Shown here: piece after piece, positions 1,562 to 52,770 of the stretch
Layout: the number at the start of each line of letters is the position of its first letter
Numbering within the stretch: the first letter of the stretch is position 1
Assembly (NCBI RefSeq): GCF_030684315.1
Contig: NC_081366.1
Span: 38,354,078 to 38,418,077 of the forward strand
Direction: 5' to 3'
DNA: 64,000 bases
From: Stegostoma tigrinum
Lineage: Eukaryota
Position numbers and translations under genes: made by a program
The notes under the pieces: generated by a model
The model's database searches: none
The model's input: only the letters and a program-made list of their open reading frames with translations
What the model was told of the DNA's origin: nothing

Positions 1562-4500
1562 GGTCAGGGCAGTCGAATGTTCCTCCTGCAGAATGTGGGA
1601 GGTAAGGGTCACCACTAGTGTCTCTACTGACTAGATCTGCGGGAAGTGCACCCAACTTCAGCTTCTCAAAAACCGCGTTACAGAACTGGAGTTGGAGCTG
1701 GATGAACTACGGATCATTCGGGAGGCATAGGGGGTTATTGAGAGGAGTTACAGGGAGGTAGTCACTCCTCAGGTACAAGAAAAAAAGCAGATGGGTTACG
1801 GTCAGGGGACGGAAAGGGAACCGGCAGGCAGTGCAGGGTTCCCCTGTGGCCATTCCCCTCAACAATAAGTATACCATTTTGGATACTGTGGGGGGAAGAG
1901 ATGACTTACAAGGGGAAAGCAGTGGGGCACAGGTCTCTGGCACAGAGTCTGTCCCTGCTGCTCAGAAGGGAAAGGGGGAAAAAGACGAGCAGAGCAGTAG
2001 TCACTGAGGACTCCATAGTTAGGGGGACAGATAGGAGGTTCTGTGGGGACGAGTGAGACTCACAGTTAGTGTGGTGCCTCCCAGGTGCCAGGGTGTGTGA
2101 TGTCTCTGATCGTGTTTTTGGGATCCTTAAGGGAGAGGGGGAGCAGCCCCAAGTCGTGGTCCACGTTGGCACCAACGACATAGGTAGGAAGAGAGATGGG
2201 GATTTAAGGCAGAAATTCAGGAAGCTAGGATGGAAGCTTAGAGCGAGGACGAACAGTTGTTGTCTCTGGTTTGCTGCCCGTGCCACGTGCTAGTGAGGCG
2301 AGGAATAGGGAGTGAGAGGAGTTGAATACGTGGCTACAAGGATGGTGCAGGAGGGTGGGTTTTGGATTCGTGGATAATTGGGGGTCTTTCTGGGGTAGGT
2401 GGGACCTCTACAAGCAGGATGGTCTTCACCTGAACCAGAGCGGTACCGATATCCTGGGGGGGAAATTTGCTAAGGCTATTCGGGTGGGTTTAAACTAATT
2501 CAGCAGGGGGATGGGAACCAAAATTGTAGTTGGGAGTATAGAAAAGGTTGAGAGTAGGAAGGTCCGAAATAAAGTTTCAGGGACGCAAGATGGCATCGGC
2601 AAGCAAGAAGTTGGTTTGAAGTGTGTCTACTTCAACGCCAGCAGCGTCCGGAATAAGGTGGGTGAACTTGCAGCATGGGTTAGTACCTGGGACTTCGATG
2701 TTGTAGCCATTTCGGAGACATGGCTAGAGCAGGGACAGGAATGGTTGTTGCAGGTTCCGGGATTTAGATGTTTCAGTAAGAACAGAGAAGATGGTAAAAA
2801 GCGGGGGGGAGGTGTGGCATTGCTGGTCAAGGACAGTATTACAGTTGCAGAAAAGAGGTTTCGGGACTCAAAAAACTGAGGTAGTATGGGCTGAGGTTAG
2901 AAACAGGAAAGGAGAGGAGAGGTCACCCTGCTGAGAGTTTTCTATAGGCCTCTGAATAGTTCCAGGAGATGTAGAGGAAAGGATAGCAAAGATGATTCTC
3001 AATACGAGTGAGACAGACAAGGTAGTTGTCATGAGGGACTTCAACTTTCCAAATATTGACTGGGAACACTATAATTTGAGTACTATAGATGGGTCAGTTT
3101 TTGTCCATTGTGTGCAGGAGGGCTTCCTGACACAGTATGTAGATAGGCCAACAAGGGGCGAAGCCACATCAGATTTGGTACTGGGTAATGAGCCCGCCAG
3201 GTGTTAGATTTGGAAGTAGGTGAGCACTTTGGTGATAGCGATCACAATTTTGTTATGTTTACTTTAGTGATGGAAAAGGATAGGTGTATACCACTGGGCA
3301 AGAGTTATAGCTGGGGGGAAGGCAATTATGATGAGATTAACATAGAACATAACAGCACAGTACAGGCCCTTCGGCCCTCGATGTTGTGCCGACCTGCCAT
3401 ACCAATCTGAAGCCCATCCAACCTACGCTATTCCATGTACGTCCATATGCTTGTCCAATGATGACTTAAATGTACTTAAAGTTGGCAAATCCACTACCAT
3501 TGTAGGCAAAGCATTCCATATCCTTACTACTCCGAGTAAAGAAACTACCTCTGACATCTTAATAAGAAGGAACCAAAGTTCAAACTTTCAAAAATAGAAA
3601 AAAATTATGGTGCATTTTTATTCACTTCATTATTTTTGTGCAGCTAGGTAATATTTAGGGAGCATAGGATGGGGAAAGCAGCTGCAGGGGATGGGCACAT
3701 TAGAAATGTGGAGCCTATTCAAGGAAAAGTACCAGTGTGTCCTAGATAAGTATGTACCTGTCAGGCAGGGAGGAAGCTGTGGAGAGCGGGAGCCGTGGTT
3801 TACAAAGGAAGTGGAATCTCTGGTCAAGAAAAGAAGGCGGCTTATGTTAGGATGAGATGTGAAGGCTCAGTTAGGGCACTTGAGGGTTATGAGGTAGCCA
3901 GGAAAGACCTAAAGAGAGAGCTCAGAAGATCCAGGAGGAGACATGAGAAGTTGTTGGTGGATAGCATCAGGGTAAACCCTAAGGCTTTCTATAGGTATTT
4001 AAGGAATAAAAGAATGATGGAAGTAAGATTAGGGCCAATCAAGGATAGTAGTGGGAAGTGGTGTGTGGAGTCAGAGGAGATAGGGGAAGCACTAAATGAA
4101 TATTTTGACAGTATTCATTCTAGAAAACGACAATGCTGTCGAGGAGCATACTGAGATACAGGCTGCTAGACTAGGTGGGATTGAGGTTCACAAGGAAGAG
4201 GTATTAGAAATCCTACAGAGTGAGAAGATAGATAAGTCCCCTGGGCCAGATGGGATTTAACCCAGGATCCTCTGGGAAACCAGGGAGATTGCCAAGCCTT
4301 TGGCATTGATCTTTAACTCATCATTGTCTACAGGAATAGTGACAGACGACTGGAGGATAGCAAATGTGGTTCCCCTGTTCAAGAAGGGGAGTAGAGACAA
4401 CCCTGGTAATTATAGACCAGTGAGCCTTACATCAGTTGTTGGTAAAGTGTCGGAAAAGGTTATGAGATAGGATTTATAATAATCTAGAAAAGAATAAATT

Positions 4501-5620
4501 GGTTAGGGATAGTCAGCACGGTTTTGTGAAGGGTAGATTGTGACTCACAAACCTTACTGAGTTCTTTGAGGTGGTGACCAAACAGGTAGATGAGAGTAAA
4601 CCAGTTGATGTGGTATATATGGATTTCAGCAAGGCGTTCGATAAGGTTCCCCACAGTAGGCTATTGTACAAAATGCGGAGGAATGGGATTGTGGGAGATA
4701 TAGCAGTTTGGATCGGAAATTGGCTTGTTGAAAGAAGACAGAGGGTGGTGGTTGACGGGAAATGTTCATCCTGGAGACCAGTTACTAGTGGTGTACCGCA
4801 AGGGTCGGCATTGGGTCGACTGCTGTTCGTCATTTTTAGAAATGACCTGGATGAGGGCGTAGAAGGATGGGTTACAAAACTTGAAGACGGCACTAAGGTC
4901 GGTGGAGTTGTGGATAGTGATGAAGGATGCTGTAGGTTGCACAGAGACATAGATAAGCTGCAGAGCTGGGCTGAGAGGTGGCAAATGGAGTTTAACGCAG
5001 ACAAGTGTGAGGTGATGCACTTTGGTAGGAGTAACCGAAAGGCAAAGTACTGGGCTAATGGTAAGATTCTTGGTAGTGTAGATGAGCAGAGAGATCTCGG
5101 TGTCCTTGTACACAGATCCTTGAAAGTTGCCACCCAGGTTGACAGGGCCGTTAAGAAGGCATAGTGTTTTAGCTTTTATTAACAGAGGGATCGAGTTCCG
5201 GAGCCAAGAGGTTATGCTGCAACTGTACAAAACTCTGGTGCGGCCACACTTGGAGTATTGTGTACAGTTCTGGTCACCGCATTATAAGGAGGACGTGGAA
5301 GCTAGTGGTTAGATAGGGAGAGCCTTTTTCCTAGGATGGTGACGGTGAGCACGAGGGGGCATAGCTTTAAATTGAGGGGTGAAAGATATAGGACAGATGT
5401 CAGAGGTGGTTTCTTTACTCAGAGTAGTAAGGGTGTGGAACGCTTTGCCTGCAACAGCAGTGGATTCGCCACCTTTAAGTACATTTAAGTCATCATTGGA
5501 CAAGCACATTGGACATACATGGAATAGTGTAGGTTGGATGGGCTTCAGATCGGTACGACAGGTCGGCACAACAACAGAGGACCGAAGGGCCTGTACTGTG
5601 CTGTAATGTTCTATGTTCTA
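1562..5620 (+). mobile_element. Near-full-length, frameshifted CR1 LINE (ORF1 zinc finger/esterase + ORF2 APE endonuclease/RT) within RUFY1 intron 9, antisense to the gene
   Basis: ORF1 remnants CSSC..CGKC..LELELDEL and SGNH-esterase VVVHVGTNDIG. ORF2 remnants [70 protein letters not shown]1-type tail GTTCTATGTTCTA ends at 5620. Multiple stops and frameshifts. Confidence 0.95.
3339..3560 (-). mobile_element. 5'-truncated CR1 3' end nested in inverted orientation inside the large CR1
   Basis: AACATAGAACATAACAGCACAGTACAGGCCCTTCGG... is the reverse complement of the CR1 3' end at ~5395-5620. Confidence 0.9.
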
Positions 5621-12600: not shown

Positions 12601-15600
12601 GAAAGCGCTTTGTGCTGTTTAAAAAGAAAAGTAGTAATGCAGATCCAATGAGGGTTCTTGCAGAACACTGGTATCCCTAGGTCTGATCAAGGAAACCTAG
12701 GTTCAAGTAACACCTGCTCCACAGATGGCTAATATCAAAACACTTGTTCAGTGATGTTAAGAGGTCACTGATCTGAAAAGTTAACATGCATCTTTGTCCA
12801 CAAATGTTGTCTGGCCTGTTGTGTATTTCTAGCCTTTACCATTTTAATCTTAATTGACAGATTTGTTCAACAGGTCATTTAAACGCAAGTGAACTTGAAC
12901 TTATTCAACGACTATGTTTTTAAAAATCCTACACTGAAATCCCTATATTTCTCACATATTGAATATGTCAAATGAGTTTTAAAGAATGTTATTTAAATGC
13001 TGGTATTTCTTAAAGGGGCAAGTGATCAGAAAAAGCTAACAATAAACAGTGCTAATTATCACGTTTTGCAACAGAGAACAGAAAAGATATAATATTTTGT
13101 TTTTCTGTATAAAGAAACAGGAATATGGAGACAAGTCTTTGAGACACAGAATCTTTCAAATAAAGCAGATCTATAAACTCTGAAGCAACAATTCTTAAAA
13201 TAAACAGTAAGCAAAGTCCAGAACATTTCTGCAACAAAAGCAGGGTTTGAATAAAAAAACTGGTACAGAATATCTATTATTACCTGAGAATCCAAGTCTT
13301 CTCCTTTTAAACAAAGATTTGCATCAATAACCGTAAGGCCCACCAGCAGGCCAACAATGATTGCTCCCTCATCGTGCAGCATCAGTGCATTTGGATCATA
13401 GAATTCACTAGAGTAACAAAATGCATTAATTAATTCAAAGCAATTTAAATTGTCAACTGGCATCCATTTTACTACAGAACAGTATGAACAAGTCATAAAA
13501 AGGATATGAACTACTAAAACCATTGTTAGCATGTATCTTCCTTTCACTAAGAAAATTCCCCACTTTTCAAACAAATAAAATTGCATCATGCAATCAAATT
13601 TCAGAGCAACATCAGATTAGTAACCAGTGTAATTAAGAATTCTAAAACTCAACTTCAAAACAACATTATGTTCACACATTTAATATAAAAGAAAACAATG
13701 AAGGCTTTCAAGATTCTGGAACTACTACAATCTGTGGTGCTGTCAACGTGGCATCATGGTACTATTAAATGGAACCAAATATGATGTGTGACCCAACAGT
13801 CGCCTATACAAATCTCTATTCCTCTTCCAAAATATTTAATGACAACAAACAGAGTCCTGAGTAAGCATGAAAAACTGGTGAACAGTGTAAATGTGAGATA
13901 AAAATGAACATCTTAGAATTCTCAAGCTGGATGCACTGAAGACATTTGGAAGGCTGCTTCTGTGAAGTTTACTGAGCTCCAAATATTGAAAGTAAATATA
14001 ACAAAAAGCTATTAATAGATCAGGCTGAAGAAAACCATGCAGCACACAGGAGTGCTAGAGTCAATTTCCAAGCAGCCAGCTCTGAATATCTCAATCAAAC
14101 CATCTTTTTATTTTATATTTCAAATCCCCTCACCCTATGGCCAGGTAACCACTCACCATCTGGGATTTAAACCCAGGTCCCCAGAACATTACCTTGGTCT
14201 CTCTAGATTAATAGTCTAGGTGATAATAGTACTAGGTGATCACCTCCCCCAACATTACCTTGGTCATATTAATGAAAGCTGAGGAACCACAGTAGCGATT
14301 AAAACTGAAAATCAACACATCAAGCATAGCTGCATGTAGGTTAATTAAATATAGGTCAGTATAATTTGTTTTTGGGGAGGGAACTGATGGAGAAAATGGT
14401 AGTTATTATAATTAAACAACGTCAAAAGTTCTGGAGTTAATGAGTTAAAATGTGAAATGACACAAACAAACACACTTTATATTGGTGATAATGGGAACTG
14501 CAGATGCTGGAGAATCCAAGATAATGAAATGTGAGGCTGGATGAACACAGCAGGCCCAGCAGCATCTCAGGAGCACAGATCTGGAGATAACAAGGTCTAC
14601 AGATGCTGGAAGTTAGAGTCGATAAAATGTGGAGCTGGAGGAGCACAGCAGGTCAGATAACAGCTGAGCAGGAGGAAAGTCAGACCTTCTATGCTCCCCC
14701 AGCTCCACATTTTAATCAATTTTACATTGATCTAGCAGTCTGATCAAACAGTGCAAAGGAAAAATAGATGAAAATTTTAGAAAAAAGTTAAGAGCAATGA
14801 CGATAATAGTTATAAAATGGAAATTCAGTTAACCAAAAAAAAGCAAGGTAAGATAGAAAAGTAATTTAAAAAAAAGACAGACAGAGACAGTGTGTGTTTC
14901 CCTCAATGATAAGTTGCTGCTCCAACGAGACAGTCATCCTACTTGGGATAACAAGGTGTAGAGCTGGATGAACACAGCAGGCTAAACAGCAGCGGAGCAG
15001 AAAAAGCTGATGTTTCGGGCCTAGACCCTCCTTGGAAAATTTTCTGAAGGGTCTAGGCCTGAAACGTCAGGCTTCCTGCTCCTCGGCCTGCTGTGTTCAT
15101 CCAGCTCCACACCTTGTTATCTCAAATTCTCCAGCATCTGCAGTTCCTACTATCTCAGTTACACTACTTGAACTGGTTCTGGGTAATGCAAGTAAGTGAC
15201 TTTAAAGAGTGGAATAGGAAACAGTGGCTACAATTAAACCTCAAGAACTAAAGGGGAGAACAGAAAGCAAATGACAGTGAAATAAGATGACATCACTTCC
15301 ATTAAAATAAAAATTGATAAGCATAATATTGGGGATTGGTAATAGTCCACTCCTTCAGGTTTTACCAGGTTGACAGAACCACAGTTATTTGTAAACTTTA
15401 ACAGGTTCCCAGGAACTTCTACTGTGAACTGGATTTCAGGATTTTGTCTTCCAGCTTCTAGGATGCCTTCTTAAACTTTAATTCTTGGTCTGTAGAAGAG
15501 AACTCGAAGTCAGAAAAGGGTTGATGTGTGTCAGGTTGAAGAAGTACTTTGCTTGGGCATTCTGATTTAAACAGGATTCGATAACCACTAAAAGTGGATA

Positions 15601-21600: not shown

Positions 21601-24600
21601 TAGAGGACCCCAAAATGACTTGTTTGGGCCAAGGAAAGTCTTTTTAACTGAGAAAGAAAATAAATGTTTTGTCAGTTTTGTGATCTTTCATTGAATGAAA
21701 AGCAGACCACTAAAACAACATGCCCCGACGTACCTTTCAGTCCATGTTTAAGGCATTGCTCCATAACCACAAAAAACTGCTGAAGAGGAGGGAAATCTGC
21801 ATCTAAAGTCCTTCCCAGGTTTAATGCAGACTGAATAAGCACTTTGATACTAAGTTTCATCATATTCATGAGGTTGACTCGTTCATTTTTCATATGCTCA
21901 TTATTATCTAAATTTTAAAAAAATATAATGATTAGAAAGAGCAGATAAGTGCAATTGAAAAAATGATTTTACAATGAAATTAACATCTATACAAAAGTAT
22001 TGTAAGTTGTTCGAAAACCAACCATCTTAAAATATTTTTGCAGCATGCTCACTTTAGTGCAGTTGTTTTCAGGCCTTGTCTTCACCACTTTTGTAATTTG
22101 AAGTTGATTGGCTCGCCAAACTGGTTTGTTGTTTTGCAGATATTTTTTGTTACCATGCTTGGTAACATCCTCAGTGCGGCCTCTGATGAAGCGATGTTTT
22201 CCTGCCTGGTGCTTAAACTCTGGGTTGTTGAGATGGATTGCCTCACTTGTGGTTTTCCTTCATAGTGGAATGTCTATGGGGTCGAGTTCAATGCATTTAT
22301 TAATAGCATGCTTCGTGGAGTGCCAGGCTTCCAGGAATTCTCGTGCTCGTCCCTGCCTAGCCTGTCCCAGGATGTTGGTGTTGTCCCAGTTGAAGTCGTG
22401 GTTCTCCTCGTCCATTTTGATTGTGACGAGTGAGTATTGGTTGTGTCTTTTTGTACCCAGTTGGTGTTCATGTACATACAAACAGGAAGGAAACTAACAA
22501 CAAGAGGACACCCTTTGCAATCCACATGGACATGGAGAACCACCACTCGACTGGGACAACACCAACATCCTGGGACAGGCTAGACAGAGACAAGCACAAG
22601 AACTCCTGGAAGCCTGGCACTTCACGAAGCATGCTATTAATAAATGCATTGAACTCGACCCCACAGACATTTCACTACAAAGGAAAGCCAGAAGTGAGGC
22701 AATCCATCTCAATGAACACCAGAGATAAAGTGTGGAACTGGATGAATACAGCAGTCCAAGCAGCATCTCAGGAGCACAAAAGCTGATGTTTCGTGCCTAT
22801 ACCTGATGAAGGGTCTGTTGTGCTCCTGAAATGCTGCTTAGCCTGATGTGTTCATCCAGCTCCACACTTTGTTATCTCGGATTCTCCGGCATCTGCAGTT
22901 CCCATTATCTTCCCTCTCAATGAGCACCAGGCAGGAAAACACACCAACGCTTCAGCAGAGGCTGCACTGAGGATGTTACCAAGCATGGTAACGAAACTCT
23001 GCAAAACAACAAACCAGCTCAGCCAGCCAACCAATCTCACACCCACAACCTGAGCTACAGATCTACTCCAAAACCTTTTGTAATTTACCATTCCCCAAAC
23101 TTGGGAAAATACACTAAAATCTTCCCTAGTTGGTTAAGCCACTTTTTGGTGAAGCTTTTCAATTTCAGTCACTAATTAGCAGTTGCTAAAGGATAGTGTC
23201 TTTTTACTTTGAGTGTTTTTTTAAAAGAAAAAATGGATTGGATGAGAAAATTTGTCTTTTATAAAAAAAAAATCAGTGTTTAAAAAAAAAGGTGTCAGTA
23301 TAATTGGAAAGCAAGTAACCAGAGACCTACATGAAGCATTACGTAGGCAAATGTTTGGACAAACATTAATTGAAGTTTGAGTTGCAGACAATTTGGATCC
23401 AAGGGGGGGGTGTACAGATGTTGTCTTTGCGAGCTAAAAGTTGATTTGTTTTTGAACTAATGAGTTACCAATGACAGAGACTTTTTGCCTACCACCAACT
23501 GACTTATTGGTTCTCAGATAAACGAACAGTTGAACTGGAAACAAGTTGTACAGAAGGGGAAGTGTTCAATTCTCTGCCAGTTCCAGGGCAATGTGTCTGT
23601 TCTGTGCAGTCAAAACTCACTGTTTTTGTTTCTTCAGTTTACTGAGTGCTGAATAAACTCAGCAGGTCTGGAAGCAAGTGTGGAGAGAGAAGAGGAGTCA
23701 ACATTACACCATTTCCCAGATGCTTTCAGTTCTGATGAAGGATCACTGGTCTTATAACATTACTGTTAATGTTAAAGATCCAGCAACCCTTCGTCTGAAC
23801 TAAATATGTTGGGAAATGGTGGTAATTTCAACTACTCTTCTCTCTGCAGAGGCTTCCAGAGCTACCGAGTTTCTCCAGCACTCTGCTTCAGATTTCCAGC
23901 AGTTATTTGTTGTAGTTTAATGAACTGAATAAAATGTTAATCTTTCATGCAACAGCTGTGATAAACTATGAGCTTTAACAATAGTCAAGAGACTTTTACT
24001 AAGTGAACCAACTACCTCAAATCTGTTATCAACCAGTGAAAACATCCAGGAAAAGAAAAATCCCCGAAGCAACATGCTGGTCAGCAAATAATCTTAAGGA
24101 TCATCTCAAACGATCCTGGTACCAAAGGTCAAAGGAAAACTGAAGTATTAGGGCCAGTGTCAGCTGTATTTTTACCTTCATTTACTTCAAGAATTTTTGA
24201 ACGCCTCACATCTGGCCATGGTGCCTCATTAAGCTTAAGTGCCAACCATCTATCCAAGACTTGTTCCTTATTAATTTTGACCCCCACTAGTGACAGATTT
24301 TTTTCCTATCACCATGGCCTGGTTTTACAGACCAGACCAAACCCCCTAAAAACATAATAAGAAGGTGGCTTTGAAGCTAAAATTTTCAAGCTCCGACAGA
24401 ACAGGATTTTTAGATTTAGTTTTTCAGTAACAGTTGCTGGGATCTTGAAGCTGGGTTTGGAAGCTGCAGTATATCTGTCCCTGCTACTGAGTTTTCGTTT
24501 GTTTTTCCTCCGAGACAAGAGAGTTACATGTGAGGCAATCTATTTTACTGAATTTACCTTTGCCAAGGGTTTGTTTTGAGATGTTGCTCTTGGAACAATT

Positions 24601-27600
24601 CCTGTTTAGGAATTGAATAATCTTATTGTCCTGTTAAGTCTTCCAATAGAGTTGTATTTCTTTCTTTTTTCTATTTTAACTTGTGTATGAATAAAGTGTG
24701 TATTTCTTCAAATCTGGTAGTTTGACCAATCAAATTGCATCCAGAATGCAAAGCCTGTCACTTGCCTTTAAAATAAGAAAATTTTAGGTAAGTGACAGGC
24801 TTTGCATTCTGGATGGAATTTGATTGGTCAAACTACCAGATTTGAAGAAATACACACTTTATTCATACACAAGTTAAAATAGAAAAAAGAAAGAAATACA
24901 ACTCTATTGGAAGACTTAACAGGACAATAAGATTATTCAATTCCTAAACAGGAATTGTTCCAAGAGCAACATCTCAAAACAAACCCTTGGCAAAGGTAAA
25001 TTCAGTAAAATAGATTGCCTCACATGTAACTCTCTTGTCTCGGAGGAAAAACAAACGAAAACTCAGTAGCAGGGACAGATATACTGCAGCTTCCAAACCC
25101 AGCTTCAAGATCCCAGCAACTGTTACTGAAAAACTAAATCTAAAAATCCTGTTCTGTCGGAGCTTGAAAATTTTAGGTTCTAAGCCATCTTCTTATGATG
25201 TTTTGAGGGGGTTTGGTCTGGTCTGTAACACCAGGTCATGGTGATAGATTTTTTTTCCTGTCACTAATGGGGATCAAACTTAATAAGGGACAAGTCTTGG
25301 ATAGATGGTTGGCACTTAAACTTAAGGCACCATGGCTAGATGAATCGCAACCAAGAATTCTTGAAGTAAAATGATGGTAAAAATACAGCCGACACTGGCC
25401 GTAATATTTCAGTTTTCCTTTGACCTCTGGCACCAGGATCTTTTGCTGCGATGATCCTTAAGATTATTTTGCTGGCCAGCATGTTGCTTCAGTCATTTTT
25501 TTGCCTCTGGTTGATAACATTGAAGCTGCTTCCATTGTTCCAATTTTTAAAAACCTCAGGTCTCATAAGCTGTTTACTTTATTGGATTTAAACAGACAGC
25601 CTGTCACCACCGTCTTAACATGTTTTCATACGAAGAAAAATCCAGTCAAAATACACCTCTTAAAGCGTAGTACCATCACAATGAGTAGCCTTTTTGGTAA
25701 AGACAGATGCAAAGTATTTATTTAGTACCACAGCCATGCCCCATGCCTCTAATTGCAAATCATCTTTTTGGTCTCAGATGAGTCCTACTACTCCATTAGC
25801 CACTCTCTTGCTATTTATAGGTCTTTACAAGACTTTAGGATTTCCCTTTATGTTAACTGCTAGTCTTTTTTTCATAGTTCTGCTTTGCTTTTCTACTTCC
25901 TCCACCAAACAGGACGGCGTCTAACAGCTACAACATTATGAACAATGCATTTCTAATGTAACAATAATTTCAATCCACTTCGAAAGTATTATAGAGCAAA
26001 CTATGTTGTCAACAAATAGGGTAATTTCAGGGCAGATATCCAGAAGCTTGGTCATAGAGGCAAATATGAATTCATTTCTTAAAAGGAGGAAGGAGTTACA
26101 AAGCTGAAGATGTTTACAATGGGAACTCCAGAGTTTGGGGCCTCAGGAGCTGAGGGCACAGCTACCTATTAGGGAATGATTAAAATCAGGGGGATGCTCA
26201 AAGGCAAGCATCAGAGTCAGATATCTGAAAGGTTGTGGGCTGCAGAGGATTAGAGATTGGAAAGGTGTGCCCATGGAGGAATTGAAAAAGGATGAGAATT
26301 TTAAAATCAAGGGATCATTTACACCAGGAGTCAATGCAAGTCATATGGTGAATACACCTGATCACGCACAGAGGTTTGAATGCTGTCATGATCTTAAGAG
26401 TAGCCTACAAGCTGTCAGTCAGAAGTCAACTGGAATATCAAGTCACAATAACAAAAAAGGTATGCATAAAGGATTTGGCTAATTAGCTGAAGCAGGACAG
26501 GGTTGGGTTATGTTGCAGAAGTGGAAATAGGCTCTCTCAAAGTATGGGCAAAATATGACCAGCCAGGCAAAGTCCTTAAATAGGGAACAGTTTGCAACTG
26601 GAAACCAGAGGCCATGGCTTCTTTGTGCAAGCTTAACCAGAGAAAACTACTAATTCAATATTTTATGTCCAACAAATAGGCTAACATTTTAGCATCAGTG
26701 GGATAAGCAAAAACAGGTAATGACAAGGTAGAGATGGACGCCATCATCATACACATCAAAAATGACTGCTTTTGGATAATGTCACAGTTGGGTACCCTGG
26801 TGAGAAACAAGAGAAGGAAGCCAACAATAAATCCATCAGACATGCCTGTTGAGATGCAGGGTTCAGGCAGCACAGTCACAAGCTCAAGTTCCAGACCAGA
26901 TGCAAAGGTAAAGTTGATACAGTACTAGCAGACTACAAGACTGCTCTCTCATTAGAGAACTGGCAGTGGTTTAACCCCATGGGTCACCATACCTCAAAAC
27001 AAGGGGAAAAGTTGAGATGGAAAGTTGTTGATGGAACTGAACCCACTACACCAACAACTAACTGAGATGCCAAAAGAACCAGGGTTAAATCCCAATTGCC
27101 ACAAGAGGTATGTGACAACATATCTGAACAGGCTTTAAAGTAAGTTGAAGCTGCTGCAGGCAGAACAGTTAGCCAACAATAGACAGGCACCGCAGTAAAA
27201 TGACATGTCAACCGATCACCTCGCAGACAGGTCAAGAAGGTAAACGTTATGTTAAAATGACTGTAACAATCGCAAAAGCGGGCTGGTGAAGCCTCCAAGC
27301 TCTTCAGTAGCTGTATTTCAAAACGATTAGCAAAACCCCAACTCTTTTGCAATGAGGGGATCCGGCCGGGATCAGTACTCGCCACCGACCATAAACCTCC
27401 CACTCACCCCACACCTCTTGCACCCGCGCGCTCCCTGGTCCCACACTTCGCCAACAGCATGGCGCGTCCCCGAGCCTCGCGCCCCGCTACCCCTTGCCAG
27501 CTCTGCCCGTTCCCCAAGGCTCGCGCCTAATTGGCCCCGCCTCTCGGGCTCGGGCCCGCGCTCGTGCCCCCCCCCCACCCCATTCCAAAACCTACTTTTA

Positions 27601-27836
27601 GTCATCGTGTTGTCGCTGCTGCTTGCTTTGACCGCGAATCCCACCGCCGCTGATTTCAAAGCGCTCCCGTAGTTCGCCGATAGGGTCTCTGACGCTTTCC
27701 TGGCGAGTGACAGTATGGGGGTCGACCAGCCACCATCCTCCAAGCCTCGAACGCTTGCGACAGGTGACGAAGGCGATCCAGTCTTGTGGTCTGCCTCAGC
27801 CGCGGCGCTACTCAAATCCTCGGTTTGGTCCGCCAT
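6528..27836 (-). CDS. RUFY1: RUN and FYVE domain-containing protein 1, spliced gene, exons 1-9 (3' part lies outside the window)
   Basis: Nine exons with canonical GT/AG and consistent phase. Translation [145 protein letters not shown] follows the RUFY1 N-terminus, RUN domain and coiled coil as I recall them. Confidence 0.93.
6724..6793 (-). CDS. RUFY1: RUFY1 exon 8 (70 bp) [23 protein letters not shown]
   Basis: aaacAG acceptor, GTaaat donor; phase 2 in, phase 0 out. Confidence 0.92.
7069..7134 (-). CDS. RUFY1: RUFY1 exon 7 (66 bp) [22 protein letters not shown]
   Basis: ctgcAG acceptor, GTgaac donor; [14 protein letters not shown] motif. Confidence 0.92.
7400..7960 (-). mobile_element. 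Possible highly decayed Ty3/gypsy gag relic
   Basis: Minus-strand fragments RQSQRPGESL, KALASTA..FGA and EKTHSP resemble the gypsy gag pattern RQRxQxPGES...LASTCxFG...EKT. Frames are broken. Confidence 0.3.
8140..8176 (+). repeat. Poly-G tract (36 of 37 bases G)
   Basis: Directly visible homopolymer; its length may be unreliable in the assembly. Confidence 0.9.
9988..10052 (-). CDS. RUFY1: RUFY1 exon 6 (65 bp) [21 protein letters not shown]
   Basis: tttcAG acceptor, GTgagt donor; [12 protein letters not shown] is characteristic of RUFY proteins. Confidence 0.92.
10770..11725 (-). mobile_element. Decayed CR1 LINE 3' fragment
   Basis: Reverse complement of CR1 RT C-terminus (EYCVQFW-like GAATACTGTGTTCAGTTCTGG) and 3' UTR/tail. 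Confidence 0.75.
11738..11925 (-). mobile_element. HE1-like (V-SINE) 3' fragment with internal poly-C run
   Basis: TAGAATCCCTACAGTG..ACAGGCCATTCAGC tail and GGACAC..CAATTTAACATGGCCAA body, recalled as typical of elasmobranch HE1-type SINEs. Confidence 0.6.
13284..13407 (-). CDS. RUFY1: RUFY1 exon 5 (124 bp) [41 protein letters not shown]
   Basis: ctctAG acceptor, GTaata donor; C-terminal half of the RUN domain. Confidence 0.95.
14480..14715. mobile_element. Tandem/inverted PLE-terminus-derived short repeats
   Basis: GATAATGGGAACTGCAGATGCTGGAGAATCCAAGATAA..GCTGGATGAACACAGCAGG, the same family as 30577-30798. Confidence 0.75.
14946..15157. mobile_element. Palindromic PLE-terminus-derived short element with degenerate hammerhead core
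   Basis: Inverted arms GATAACAAGGTGTAGAGCTGGATGAACACAGCAGG / CCTGCTGTGTTCATCCAGCTCCACACCTTGTTATC; degenerate flanking direct repeat CAGTnnnnCTACTTG. Confidence 0.8.
16230..16480 (+). mobile_element. tRNA-derived Deu-domain-type (SacSINE1-like) SINE, decayed
   Basis: Same family as 44610-45100 and 60100-60555. Family name is from recall, not a database search. Confidence 0.5.
16875..17335 (-). mobile_element. Penelope-like element 3' fragment (GIY-YIG C-terminus + terminal region)
   Basis: Minus frame [27 protein letters not shown]; homologous to 48385-49010 and to the end of 42360-44350. Confidence 0.8.
16943..16980 (-). ncRNA. Minimal type I hammerhead ribozyme motif
   Basis: AGUU-CUGAGGA-A-GGGU(GACCAG)ACUC-GAAA-CG-UU-AACU: intact core, stem I AGUU/AACU, stem II GGGU/ACUC, palindromic ACGU stem III. 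Activity untested. Confidence 0.65.
17620..18090 (+). mobile_element. Decayed LINE fragment (region between endonuclease and RT)
   Basis: TGCTGGTGG..ATTAAACAACTCACTGGA..ATATTCCCATCCTC..TTTGCATCCATCTTCAGCCAGAAGTGCC; a similar stretch occurs at ~34000-34440. Confidence 0.55.
18400..19830 (+). mobile_element. Decayed Ty1/copia-type pol (RT + RNase H) relic in RUFY1 intron 4
   Basis: Ordered motif remnants: [10 protein letters not shown] (K..YGL.DAS), GIFIRH-DDF (HVDD), [17 protein letters not shown] (TRPD-like), [46 protein letters not shown] (ADxxTK). Confidence 0.8.
20450..21150 (+). mobile_element. Decayed CR1 LINE 3' fragment
   Basis: MLQLY..VRPHL-type remnants and CR1-like 3' UTR; a similar fragment lies at 18090-18365. 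Confidence 0.7.
21348..21449 (-). CDS. RUFY1: RUFY1 exon 4 (102 bp) [33 protein letters not shown]
   Basis: tttcAG / GTgatt; RUN-domain GRGRAW motif. Confidence 0.95.
21530..21647 (-). CDS. RUFY1: RUFY1 exon 3 (118 bp) [40 protein letters not shown]
   Basis: tctcAG / GTaagt; RUN domain. Confidence 0.95.
21734..21907 (-). CDS. RUFY1: RUFY1 exon 2 (174 bp) [57 protein letters not shown]
   Basis: tttAG / GTacgt; start of RUN domain; in-frame ATG at 21893. Confidence 0.95.
22723..22914. mobile_element. Palindromic PLE-terminus-derived short element nested in the Penelope fragment, with 16-bp TSD
   Basis: Flanked by TCTCAATGAACACCAG (22707-22722) and TCTCAATGAGCACCAG (22915-22930). Confidence 0.8.
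22963..23003 (+). ncRNA. Minimal hammerhead ribozyme motif in Penelope terminal repeat
   Basis: UGCA-CUGAGGA-U-GUUACCA(AGCA)UGGUAAC-GAAA-C-UC-UGCA: perfect 7-bp stem II and 4-bp stem I; stem III is one base short. Confidence 0.6.
24024..25519. repeat. ~1.5 kb inverted repeat (palindrome) in RUFY1 intron 1
   Basis: Mirror ORFs 24309-24518(-) and 25035-25244(+). Symmetry centre ~24776.5 with 18-bp spacer 24768-24785. Inner arms nearly identical, outer arms diverged. Confidence 0.95.
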
Positions 27837-30576: not shown

Positions 30577-30798
30577 GTGATAATAAAATGTGAGGCTGGA
30601 TGAACACAGCAGGCCAAGCAGCATCTCAGGAGCACAAAAGCTGACGTTTCGGGCCTAGACCCTTCATCAGAGAGGAAGGGTCTAGGCCCGAAACGTCAGC
30701 TTTTGTGCTCCTGAGATGCTGCTTGGCCTGCTGTGTTCAACCAGCCTCACATTTTATTATCTTGGAATTCTCCAGCATCTGCAGTTCCCATTATCTCC
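30577..30798. mobile_element. 222-bp palindromic PLE-terminus-derived element with 12-bp TSD and hammerhead core
   Basis: 87-bp inverted arms (30579-30665 / 30675-30761, one mismatch); TSD AAGACCTATTTG at 30565-30576 and 30799-30810. Confidence 0.9.
30641..30672 (-). ncRNA. Minimal hammerhead ribozyme core
   Basis: CU-CUGAUGA-A-GGGU(CUAG)GCCC-GAAA-CG-UC-AG: canonical core and GUC site, but stem I is only 2 bp. Confidence 0.55.
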
Positions 30799-50333: not shown

Positions 50334-52770
50334 ATGAGGATTTCAATCGCAGCTGCTCTCCTTGTCCTGGTCGCAGGTGAGTCTGCCTTTTACTTGGCGG
50401 GTTTCAAGTAAAACACACAAAAGTATCGACGTGAACCGAACTGGGCGAGGCTTTTTTTTTGATGTTTGAATTTCGAAGAGAACGTGGCAGTGCCAAAGGA
50501 GCGGCGCTGTCTTATCAGATACACGGCTGCTTTTTATTTTACAGAACTCCAAAGTAGTAATGAGCACGACCCTCCCCCTTTTTTTTACATTTTCTGAGGT
50601 GTTTGTTTGTTTGTTAGTTCTTACTATACTCACTTGAACATCTCATTACCTGGTTGGTGAAATGAGGGGGATTTTGAATCGAGCGTCTGGTTGATGTTTT
50701 CGTGATGGAATTGTTGTTCCTCAGTTCCTTGCCGTACCGCCATGGGGGCGGCGATCGAAGGCTATGAGAGTGAACTAACTCGGAGTCGCAGAAGAGGGGA
50801 GGCGGATGTTATGTCCATGCTCGGAGAAGTTATTGACGGGGAACCGACTGTACAAACAGCGGAGGGTCCACCCAGTGACCGGACTCCTGTAGTACCAGAA
50901 GGTAACGTTACAGGAAGATTTCCACAGACCTCACTACTGCAAGCGATAAACATGTAAGGTTACAAACTGCGGATTCTGCCCCCTGGGAGCAGAATTTGTA
51001 TTCCTGAACAAAGTTGAACCAAGTTTTCTTGAGTGGGGGAGGGAGTATAGTGTCCAGGGCACCTATTAAAAGCTCAGTGAAATTCGAGCTGTCTCTACCT
51101 TCTCCTTTCGCATAATCATGTAGACACCATGTCTTGTTTGTTTTAAATTAGTGGCCCTTTACAAACCTGCGGGAAACTCCTCAACGACCGAAGTGGGCAA
51201 AGGCAAAGGAAGACGTCAAAGGAAAAACAGACGTGGCAAGAGAAGGGGTAAAAAGAATCCCTGCTACAGAAAATACAAAGATTTCTGCATTCATGGGGAA
51301 TGTCATTATTTGAAGCACATTAAAGAGGTATCATGCAGGTATTCACTTTTTAACTTTCTGATCTGTTGGGTGGGTAGGTGGAGGGATGGTTTCGTGTAAT
51401 TTAAAGTGGGGGAGGAAAAGGGGGCAATCGGGTAAATCTGGCCACGTAGTTAACATCGAGATGTCTCCAGTCAGTGTGGGAAACGGATGGCAGTAAACAG
51501 CTAACTTTACATATATACCTGTGTCCCAGCAAGTCTAGACAAAGCGGATATCTCCAGCGCCTCCGGAGCAAACAAGGAAACGGATAACGCTTGATGTTTA
51601 ATAGCGCCAATTTAGTTTAATTTGTACTGTTGCTGTTGACGCAAAGCGAGAGGTATTTGTTTAGGAATTTTGCTCCCAAAATTCGTCAAGCCAATGTCTC
51701 TTCACACCTTTTTTTACGTACGAGTTTCTGAAATTTGGAAGACTACTTTTAGTCGACAGAAAGACTAGAGTATTAATGTTGCACCCTAAGAAATCAAACA
51801 AGAATAATGAAATGCTGCTGCTCAGACTATTCACACGCCACTAAGGATTTAAAATTAAGTCTAGTGGGATCTCTGGTGATCCAAAATTTGAACTTCCATA
51901 TATCTTTCCTACATGGAAGTGCAATGATATTTGTTCAAAATATTAATGTATTGTGTGCTTTGCATAGTACTTTGTACAACAGCTTAGAAATAATGAACAG
52001 TAGCTATTTAATAAACATCTTTTTTAGTTGAAGTCTTGTGACCACAACTGCATAAAATTCAAATAGATGTAATTGCCTAATGTACTTCCCAGAGATATTT
52101 TGAATCACTTATTTTAAGAAAGCAAATCCAGGTCACAGTTGCATATAAAAGTCATTGGTGTGGCATTTTAACTTGTTATATGTTGTATTTAGTAAGCAAA
52201 CTAAAATGTACTTGATTTTAATTTAGGTGCTTTTCAGGATATGAAGGAGTCCGATGTGGTACTTTCATTTTAGCTGTCGAACATCCAAAAGATCCAAATG
52301 ACAATACAACTACTCTGGCAATTGTGGCGGTGGTGCTTTCCTCGCTTAGTCTCACTGTAATCCTTATCCTTTTGGTTCTTGGGTGTGTAATCTGTTTTTC
52401 TCTATCTTTTTAAAAACTGTTTCTAATTCTAGAGCATCATAAAGTTATTTTAAAATACATAACTAATGCATTGTTCGCATAAAGAAAGGAAAATGAAAAG
52501 AATTCCAGTAATCAAGCCACTTTAATCATCTGAAAAATGTGTATCCAAATAGTTTCTGATAACTATTTATAGTTAACAATGGTTTTTAAAGTAGGTTTTT
52601 TTATCAAACATAAGCATGGCAGAAGAAATGTCTGTGAAATAATTCTGTTTTTAATATGCTGTTGCCATTGCCTTAAATCTTAACTTTTTGATAGATATCA
52701 CAGACGAGTTGCCAGTTATGATGTAAAAAATGAAGAGAAGATTAAACTTGGGAATAACAACAGTCACTGA
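50334..52770 (+). CDS. HBEGF: Pro-heparin-binding EGF-like growth factor, 5 coding exons: 50334-50376, 50725-50901, 51152-51338, 52227-52382, 52695-52770 (212 aa)
   Basis: Signal peptide MRISIAAALLVLVA; basic heparin-binding tract GKGKGRRQRKNRRGKRRGKK; EGF domain PCYRKYKDFCIHGECHYLKHIKEVSCRCFSGYEGVRC; TM TLAIVAVVLSSLSLTVILILLVL; tail YHRRVASYDVKNEEKIKLGNNNSH*. All introns GT-AG and in phase; adjacent to PFDN1 as in mammals. Confidence 0.93.

Follow-up and report, generated by a model that had tools for sequence, protein, structure and literature searches.

A two-tier palindrome in the first intron of a RUFY-family gene, probably formed by a templated inverted duplication with two template switches

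The palindrome at 24024-25519 of the window (the whole 64-kb stretch of DNA that was analysed) is about 1.5 kb long and consists of two tiers. Its inner arms are best explained as a near-identical inverted copy of 387 bases within an inverted repeat that is older and 10% diverged. The copy probably arose when a polymerase switched template twice during a single recent round of replication or repair. We give this explanation, in which the palindrome is probably a by-product without function, a probability of roughly 0.8. As a class of event it is best read as a two-switch templated inverted duplication of the four-point type 3-2-4-1, or as a miniature DUP-TRP/INV-DUP.

Gene context and architecture

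Judged from its sequence, the host gene is a member of the RUFY family. At about 13.3-13.4 kb lies an exon with a match to the RUN domain in RUFY3 structures (E 1e-16), and on the minus strand the coding part of exon 1 (27836-27596) joins exon 2 (from 21907) in frame across a GT..AG intron. The location in intron 1 of RUFY1 that was given in the initial annotation is therefore supported at the level of the RUFY family. On the plus strand, a donor-like junction is considered a by-product. The features are the following.

21908..27595, minus strand: intron 1 of the RUFY-family gene, 5,688 nt, with GT at 27595 and AG ending at 21908; the whole palindrome lies inside
24024..24387, plus strand: left outer arm A; single-locus in about 24024-24229, with a match to a high-copy repeat in about 24289-24387
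24377-24387, plus strand: homology a, 11 bases within arm A, putatively used at one switch
24388..24776, plus strand: B, which separates the arms of the older inverted repeat and belongs to an unnamed high-copy repeat family; 24764-24776 were left uncopied
24777..24789, plus strand: central copy of the 13-mer, start of A'; weak pairing is possible with 24764-24773, the microhomology junction
24790..25178, plus strand: the added 389 bases, i.e. the inverted copy B' (24790-25165) followed by the second 13-mer (25166-25178)
25166..25519, plus strand: right outer arm A', which differs from A by about 10%
24024..25519, minus strand: pre-mRNA hairpin, by prediction only (-1185 kcal/mol, uninterrupted helix of 360 bp)

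Walking outward from the centre, which comprises 26 bases, the inner arms 24377-24763 and 24790-25176 are identical at 386 of 387 positions, and their sole mismatch is 24737/24816. At the wider limits 24377-24767 and 24786-25176 a second mismatch (24764/24789) is included, and the two mismatches near the centre that were described earlier are correct for these limits. The first mismatch of the outermost tier, counted from the boundary, is 24376/25177. The outer arms (24024-24376 and 25177-25519) show 296 matches and 34 substitutions over 330 aligned bases together with 8 gap events, which corresponds to a p-distance of 0.103. The difference in divergence between inner (1/387) and outer arms (34/330) is highly significant (Fisher p = 2.7e-11), so that the two tiers with a sharp boundary noted in the initial annotation hold up.

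The same is true for the 13-bp direct repeat which brackets the inner inverted copy. In the window the 13-mer GAAAATTTTAGGT has only two copies on both strands, at 24777 and 25166, which are 389 bases apart; the chance of such a match between centre and boundary is roughly estimated as 8e-5. The variant GAAAATTTTAGCT, which had been reported for the left arm, is present there as reverse complement at 24375-24387. No target site duplication (TSD) of 4-12 bases was found within 6 bases of either outer end, and no further copies of A or B were detected in the window at low stringency. Rfam gave 0 matches in the window and Tandem Repeats Finder no match in the palindrome region. Across the window 16 inverted-repeat matches of at least 40 bases within 3 kb were found, some of them nested. 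Two further hairpins lie in the same intron 1, which indicates that intronic hairpins of such type are common.

Repeat family, contigs and a related organism

A high-copy repeat family contributes B and the innermost 90-100 bases of either outer arm, and the high copy number is seen in both organisms; in run X4 the summed contig depth over B is 20- to 4000-fold that of the unique flank. The outer approximately 200 bases of the arms are single-locus, the depth over 23935-24229 being largely explained by the two arms. For 24024-24229 it is near the two-arm level in both runs of organism A and low in both runs of organism B. Among the loose ends listed, at least 114-173 contigs leave the window behind 24781 in three of the four runs. 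Of 30 positions behind this point, their majority letters agree with A' at 22 and with the sequence now found there at 13, with 5 matches common to both. The listed family copies go from B to A'-like sequence and not on into B', in favour of A-B-A' as the earlier arrangement. The direction of the event is taken provisionally from these repeat-family copies, in place of an aligned outgroup sequence. A metagenome scan returned 0 matches for a 26-base pattern and two loci for a 20-base pattern (L001 and L002, 52% GC). Both were rejected as related loci and regarded as chance matches, because only the 20-21 searched bases are common to them.

Independent evidence for B' was sought in the contigs of four runs (20 listed, among them three raw-read runs which are bisulfite libraries), which were compared over 23050-24810 only, i.e. 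left flank, A, B and centre. Both samples of organism A (S1 and S2) come from one study, and one of them may be the source of the window. In a simulation with k=31 a unique contig end at 24406 is predicted only if B' is present. Contig 3 of run X3 (sample S2) covers 23712-24406 with 0 differences and terminates at 24406 as simulated, and another contig, with the A' base at 24372, ends 35 bases away from it, in agreement with the same point; in principle a paralogue with a common 31-mer could be an alternative cause of this break. Contig 15 of run X4 (sample S1) covers 24541-24735 with 0 differences at a depth of 14, which is 2.4-fold the 5.8 ± 1.1 of eight single-copy pieces. Taken over both samples, the contig graphs are consistent with two real copies of B. 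Contig 15 breaks one base short of the predicted 24736, as could happen when paralogues are merged in; this break at 24735 was dropped as support for the mismatch at 24737 since paralogues differ at 24705. None of the 32 pieces listed (28,346 more lie beyond the listing) spans the central junction, which is therefore not directly visible in the independent data, and run X3 (92% read) has no own-locus contig over 24589-24615.

In organism B, which differs from organism A by 8.5% in the flank, both outer arms are present at the same boundary and appear nearly identical. The older outer duplication would thus predate the split of the two organisms. Its orthologous inner region is spread over more than one piece. 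The likely B contig of organism B has a depth of 9.3, near single copy (7.8-9.9), but a contig interpreted as a merger of both arms likewise has 9.4, which makes the depth an ambiguous guide to the presence of B' there. The depths of merged contigs are below the sum of the arms (7.1 vs 10.2 and 9.4 vs 17.7), and the 2-3 differences between the arms in 207 bases would also fit slow evolution, provided that changes amounted to no more than 1% per arm. For these two reasons we downgraded homogenisation of the arms in organism B from likely to possible. It is tempting to see here a self-renewing palindrome, in which an old inverted duplication was re-perfected independently in two lineages, in organism A through the templated insertion of 389 bases, in organism B through patchy conversion between the arms that would keep the outer pair about 99% identical, but we hold this idea only tentatively and consider it rather unlikely. 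If it were true, a long intronic dsRNA stem would have been kept over evolutionary time, perhaps under selection.

Mechanism and rival explanations

We propose that an older local inverted duplication of about 360 bases, which took in unique DNA as well as the end of a repeat element, would have given rise to A-B-A'. The polymerase would then have departed from its template at 24789, copied B in reverse and re-entered A', with one switch via an imperfect microhomology of 7-8 pairs at 24764-24789 and the other via the a/a' homology. The product would contain a three times and B twice. The a/a' homology comprises 11 perfect bases, and the centre forms a bulged stem of 7-8 pairs whose stability is unexceptional. 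With about -2 kcal/mol it makes a weak fold-back primer, and among 390 nearby positions 15% are equally good. Fold-back with plus-strand synthesis and an inter-strand route are indistinguishable from the product, because the mirror route (minus-strand synthesis, a/a' switch first, return via microhomology) yields an identical product; following the logic given in extracts of PMC7954356, point 2 comes before point 1 only if the plus strand was the nascent one. The initial annotation had proposed a fold-back duplication. The local two-switch addition of an inverted B to an older A-B-A' is upheld by the repeat-family junctions, the contigs of two samples and the single-locus four-part structure, while intra-strand fold-back is reduced to one of two equivalent routes. 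That annotation contained neither the high-copy repeat origin of B and the inner arm ends nor the outer duplication common to the related organism.

Inverted repeats are able to mediate inversions, and another history would begin with one. On part of the chromosomes B would have been inverted between its arms A and A', and microhomology would afterwards have allowed an inverted and an unaltered allele to exchange and be joined at the centre, with the same product A-B-a'-B'-A'. We consider this unlikely, as it requires two events and an intermediate allele, finds just 11 perfect bases beside B in arms which are 10% diverged, and leaves no sign of a flipped allele among the 15 joints listed (231 more lie beyond the listing). 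An assembly or read chimera, in which the inner copy stems from a fold-back read and is absent from the chromosome, would account for the near-perfect identity of the arms and for the central junction being absent among the contigs listed. It is very unlikely in view of the short-word contig graphs of two samples, which give the predicted break at 24406 (X3) and the 2.4-fold depth of B (X4). A simple fold-back chimera also lacks the second junction back into A', and the one internal mismatch between the inner arms speaks against it too.

That a single old palindrome of 750 bp was lately homogenised in its inner part, by arm-to-arm conversion or quasi-palindrome correction, appears similarly hard to believe. 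A conversion tract would also be expected to produce a sharp step in identity, the near-identical look of the outer arms in organism B suggests that homogenisation may occur at the locus, and template switching can maintain stems according to extracts of PMC8794818. Nevertheless, the central A'-type 13-mer, whose spacing equals the length of the insert, and the identity step inside the 13-mer would be left unexplained, and the family copies go from B into A'-like sequence. The high copy number of B and the inner arm ends in both organisms and the many hairpin-type repeats in the window would fit a foldback or MITE-type transposon with long terminal inverted repeats which was inserted whole. 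This is extremely improbable, since in the outer approximately 200 bases of each arm most of the depth comes from the two arms and not from a family. Moreover, there is no TSD of at least 4 bases within 6 bases of the ends, and the family copies lack the B' continuation behind 24781. Many genomic copies of the four-part structure with TSDs, which the initial annotation had named as the sign of a transposon, were not borne out, as the structure is single-locus in the contigs compared.

Comparison with known systems and predicted hairpin

The two-switch templated duplication resembles the four-point template-switch mutations of Loytynoja and Goldman and of Walker et al., which according to extracts of PMC7954356 combine a nearby reverse-complement copy between two switches with one insertion, a perfect inverted repeat and a short direct repeat; the '4 before 1' events described there produce one large insertion, with a direct repeat left behind. 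Here, a reverse-complement copy likewise lies between forward segments, and short homology is found at both switch points. In contrast, the 387-base tract is three times the longest event of the ape gold-standard set (median 12, maximum 128 bases, as given in the same extracts), and for its second switch an arm of an already existing inverted duplication of 360 bp was used.

DUP-TRP/INV-DUP rearrangements (Carvalho; Grochowski et al.) have, in the parts of PMC11293582 consulted, one junction at an inverted-repeat pair, one microhomology junction and an inverted segment, and the same pair of junctions is found here, with a in three and B in two copies. The scale is different: the 389-base insert is about a thousandfold smaller than these kilobase-to-megabase rearrangements and changes no gene dosage, and the repeats are 360 bp long with about 90% identity and 11 perfect bases at the switch, compared to low-copy repeats of 0.9-140 kb and at least 98% identity in those parts of the source. 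The locus works like this class and is not filed in it. Quasi-palindrome correction (extracts of PMC8794818) and the conversion known from sex-chromosome palindromes also make or keep arms identical by mutual copying and may apply to the outer arms of organism B; the event described here adds 389 bases, whereas conversion adds none. Literature listings by subject, on long palindromes in cartilaginous fish and on intronic arm-to-arm conversion, contained no such locus.

The locus belongs to a known class of events and no model is changed by it. It is an unusually readable natural template-switch duplication with both junctions at base resolution, in which an older inverted duplication appears to have seeded a younger one. 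Its size falls in a little-sampled range between short events of tens of bases and disease rearrangements of kilobases and up, and a near-perfect palindrome of 387 bp with a 26-base centre appears to be present in two samples of a vertebrate. The palindrome is likely a by-product without function; it would be more important if the arms of organism B were actively homogenised, or if the stem were heavily edited or diced.

The unspliced transcript is predicted to form a stem of about 730 bp with a perfect core of 360 bp on the minus strand, i.e. the long duplex within one transcript that characterises ADAR substrates and hairpin RNAs. Editing by ADAR would be likely before the intron decays, and dsRNA formation, cleavage by Dicer and cruciform extrusion are likewise predictions. 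A long near-perfect stem of repeat-derived sequence in one pre-mRNA is also known from ADAR-edited intronic dsRNA of palindromic Harbinger repeats in Xenopus (Porath et al., PMC5625713), but there it goes back to two insertions or a palindromic element and here to a local duplication. When the inner copy is removed, the predicted fold drops to -563 kcal/mol with a helix of 33 bp.

Two-tier architecture of the palindrome

Self-comparison places the palindrome in one inverted repeat at 24056-25500 with 92% identity, and terminal 13-base arms are found at 24024-24036 and 25507-25519. Base-by-base alignment of the arms reveals two tiers of identity, built from the following segments (plus-strand coordinates):

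24024-24387, A, outer left arm
24388-24776, B, spacer
24790-25165, B', inverted copy of B
25166-25519, A', outer right arm
24790-25178, the 389 added bases

The inner arms (24377-24763 against the reverse complement of 24790-25176) are equal at 386 of 387 bases, the sole difference being 24737/24816, whereas the outer arms agree at 296 aligned positions and differ by 34 substitutions and 8 gap events (Fisher p = 2.7e-11 for inner versus outer divergence). A second mismatch, between 24764 and 24789, and a bulge of 2 bases lie in the 26-base centre. With both strands of the 64-kb window considered, GAAAATTTTAGGT occurs only at 24777 and 25166, 389 bases apart, and the identity step between the tiers falls inside its second copy; the left arm carries a variant with C. 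The initial annotation had described these two tiers and the direct repeat accurately. Hairpins as such are ordinary in the window (16 inverted-repeat matches of at least 40 bases within 3 kb, the studied palindrome counted); this one stands out for how long its near-perfect core is.

Reality of the inner copy and its repeat family

Four sequencing runs of organism A, the organism of the window, come from two samples of one study and contain 0.82-0.86 of the sampled words; in ten runs of organism B, a relative, 0.07-0.09 are present. Contigs of X4 and X3 (organism A) and of X9 and X8 (organism B) were aligned to 23050-24810, a target with one arm, to which both arms therefore map.

In a simulation with 31-base words a unique contig from the left stops at 24406 if B' exists, and without B' there is no within-locus contig break. 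X3 contig 3 spans 23712-24406 with zero differences and stops at 24406, and one contig has the A' letter at 24372 at a distance of 35 letters from its end, compatible with an end at 24406 or a start at 24338. X4 contig 15 (24541-24735, zero differences) reaches a depth of 14, 2.4 times the 5.8 +/- 1.1 of eight single-copy pieces. Three points count against a real inner copy: no contig over the palindrome centre is among the 32 pieces listed (28,346 further pieces are unlisted), X3 has a coverage hole at 24589-24615, and one organism A sample may be the source of the window itself. The two-tier palindrome is a real feature, and that its inner copy is an artefact is unlikely.

The summed contig depth of X4 is at the two-arm level at 23935-24229, about 130-fold at 24289-24406 and 20- to 4000-fold over B; according to the tool this measure does not equal copy number, the contrast between segments being plain nonetheless. 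A similar rise from the outer arm into B is seen in organism B. B and the inner arm ends are members of a high-copy repeat family, which is abundant in both organisms. The repeat (25231 downwards on the minus strand; 24289-24788) seems to start within A', with TGTTACAG as read on the minus strand. A TG end is a typical LTR feature.

Among the rows listed, 154 (X4), 173 (X3) and 114 (X8) contigs exit the window behind 24781; the six rows listed for X9 do not include this exit. Over 30 positions the majority letters of these contigs agree with the start of A' 22 times and with the present continuation 13 times; beyond the shared 13-mer a hand count gives 17/22 versus 8/22. Several paralogue contigs of organism B are aligned to 24788 and diverge after it. 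The normal junction of the family therefore runs from B through a', the 11-base homology at the inner end of A', into A', which matches the ancestral A-B-A' state proposed in the initial annotation. By contig depth the arms are locus-specific over their outer 200 bases, and no target-site duplication of 4-12 bases flanks the outer arms within 6 bases of their ends. The best reading of A is therefore that A' (repeat end and adjoining unique flank) was locally duplicated in inverted orientation at an earlier time. The same two observations speak against A as a transposon terminus, and a local event is favoured over the foldback transposon that had been named as alternative.

Origin and age of the inner copy

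The palindrome is likely a template-switch duplication nested in this older inverted duplication. On the plus strand, synthesis would have traversed A, B and the first 13 bases of A', left at 24789, re-primed on 24764-24773, copied B backwards to 24377-24387 and rejoined at a', giving the switch-point order 3-2-4-1. According to Walker et al. (PMC7954356) the "4 before 1" class yields one large insertion, and copied tracts of the gold-standard set have a median of 12 and a maximum of 128 bases; with 387-base arms, the inner copy is long for this class. On the minus strand an equal product would result from a first switch via inverted-repeat homology and a subsequent microhomology return, the order proposed for DUP-TRP/INV-DUP (PMC11293582). 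The fold-back primer reaches only about -2 kcal/mol and is equalled at 15% of 390 nearby positions. Since it is weak and commonplace, the sequence does not favour a fold-back; of the fold-back template switch suggested initially, the two-switch duplication is likely and the fold-back route is not favoured.

The inner arms diverge by 0.26% (95% range 0.007-1.4%); the outer arms diverge by 10.3%, and the two organisms by 8.5%. Provided there was no later conversion, the inner event is therefore recent by comparison with either. The orthologous left flank into A is present in organism B (X8 contig 17, 23070-24102, 86 of 1009 letters differing), and bin arithmetic places the start of a second contig at 24024 in X8 as well as X9; the two outer arms, with their boundary, are therefore older than the species split. 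X9 has one contig only at 24112-24170, followed by two 109-base contigs (24171-24279) with 9 and 10 differences from the window. At 24201 this pair shows the two letters found in A and A' of the window, which suggests a retained old arm difference; at 24181 a letter absent from both window arms is common to all three X9 contigs, a possible sign of arm conversion. The outer arms of organism B are apparently near-identical (2-3 differences in about 207 bases of X9, versus about 10% in the window), and the X9 contigs indirectly suggest that they are just 1-2% apart. Slow evolution, with at most 1% change per arm, would account for the 2-3 differences. Merged-contig depths are low (7.1 versus 10.2; 9.4 versus 17.7), and part of one outer arm was possibly lost. 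With regard to B' in organism B, X8 contig 21, likely its B contig, has a depth of 9.3, and no organism B contig among those listed carries an A' letter well beyond 24372. Template switching both creates and maintains hairpins (PMC8794818). That the same palindrome was repeatedly re-perfected in the two lineages appears rather unlikely.

Gene context, predicted consequences and other repeats

An exon on the minus strand, at about 13.3-13.4 kb, has a match to the RUN domain of RUFY3 structures. Further exons of this RUFY-family gene were placed via short motifs of RUFY proteins. Exon 1 (ATG at 27836) and exon 2 are in frame over a GT-AG intron (27595-21908, minus strand), and the palindrome therefore lies within intron 1; the earlier assignment to RUFY1 intron 1 holds for the family and the intron. 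Two further hairpin-type repeats are located there, 22099-23039 and 23644-23883. The former has a predicted fold of -651 kcal/mol and could be another layered duplication.

Components of the nested inverted repeat at 22099-23039
Outer arms, 22099-22213/22923-23039: 100 matches, 12 substitutions
Middle arms, 22228-22393/22547-22712: 153 matches, 13 substitutions
Inner arms, 22394-22432/22509-22547: 30 matches, 9 substitutions
Small hairpin, 22727-22870: 49 matches, 7 substitutions

The minus strand of the palindrome is predicted to fold into a single hairpin (-1185 kcal/mol) whose uninterrupted helix spans 360 bp, versus -563 kcal/mol and a longest helix of 33 bp without the inner copy. Across animals ADAR acts mainly on long repeat-derived duplexes that are nearly perfect (PMC5625713), so by analogy editing of the unspliced RNA would be a fair expectation. 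Dicer processing of the predicted hairpin and cruciform extrusion of the DNA would be weaker guesses, because the hairpin RNA belongs to an intron and the 26-base centre has a bulge. The palindrome is without sign of function.

The central junction (24787-24793, plus strand) reads TAG/GTAAGT, a donor look-alike which we judge to be a by-product of junction homology; the added segment (24788-25176, plus strand) has GT at its start and AG at its end. We know of no plus-strand transcript at the palindrome. Short hairpin-type repeats are found at 23644-23883, which is extremely high-copy, and at 30579-30761, 14943-15125 and 22727-22870, which are mutually related; 30579-30761 is self-complementary at 96%. 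Elsewhere, 1742-5617 presumably represents fragments of a LINE-type reverse-transcriptase element, a label taken from translations, and self-comparison reveals an inverted pair within it (3339-3559/5395-5617). An ORF at 51124-51399 (plus strand) combines a basic stretch with cysteines in an EGF-like pattern and presumably resembles HB-EGF.
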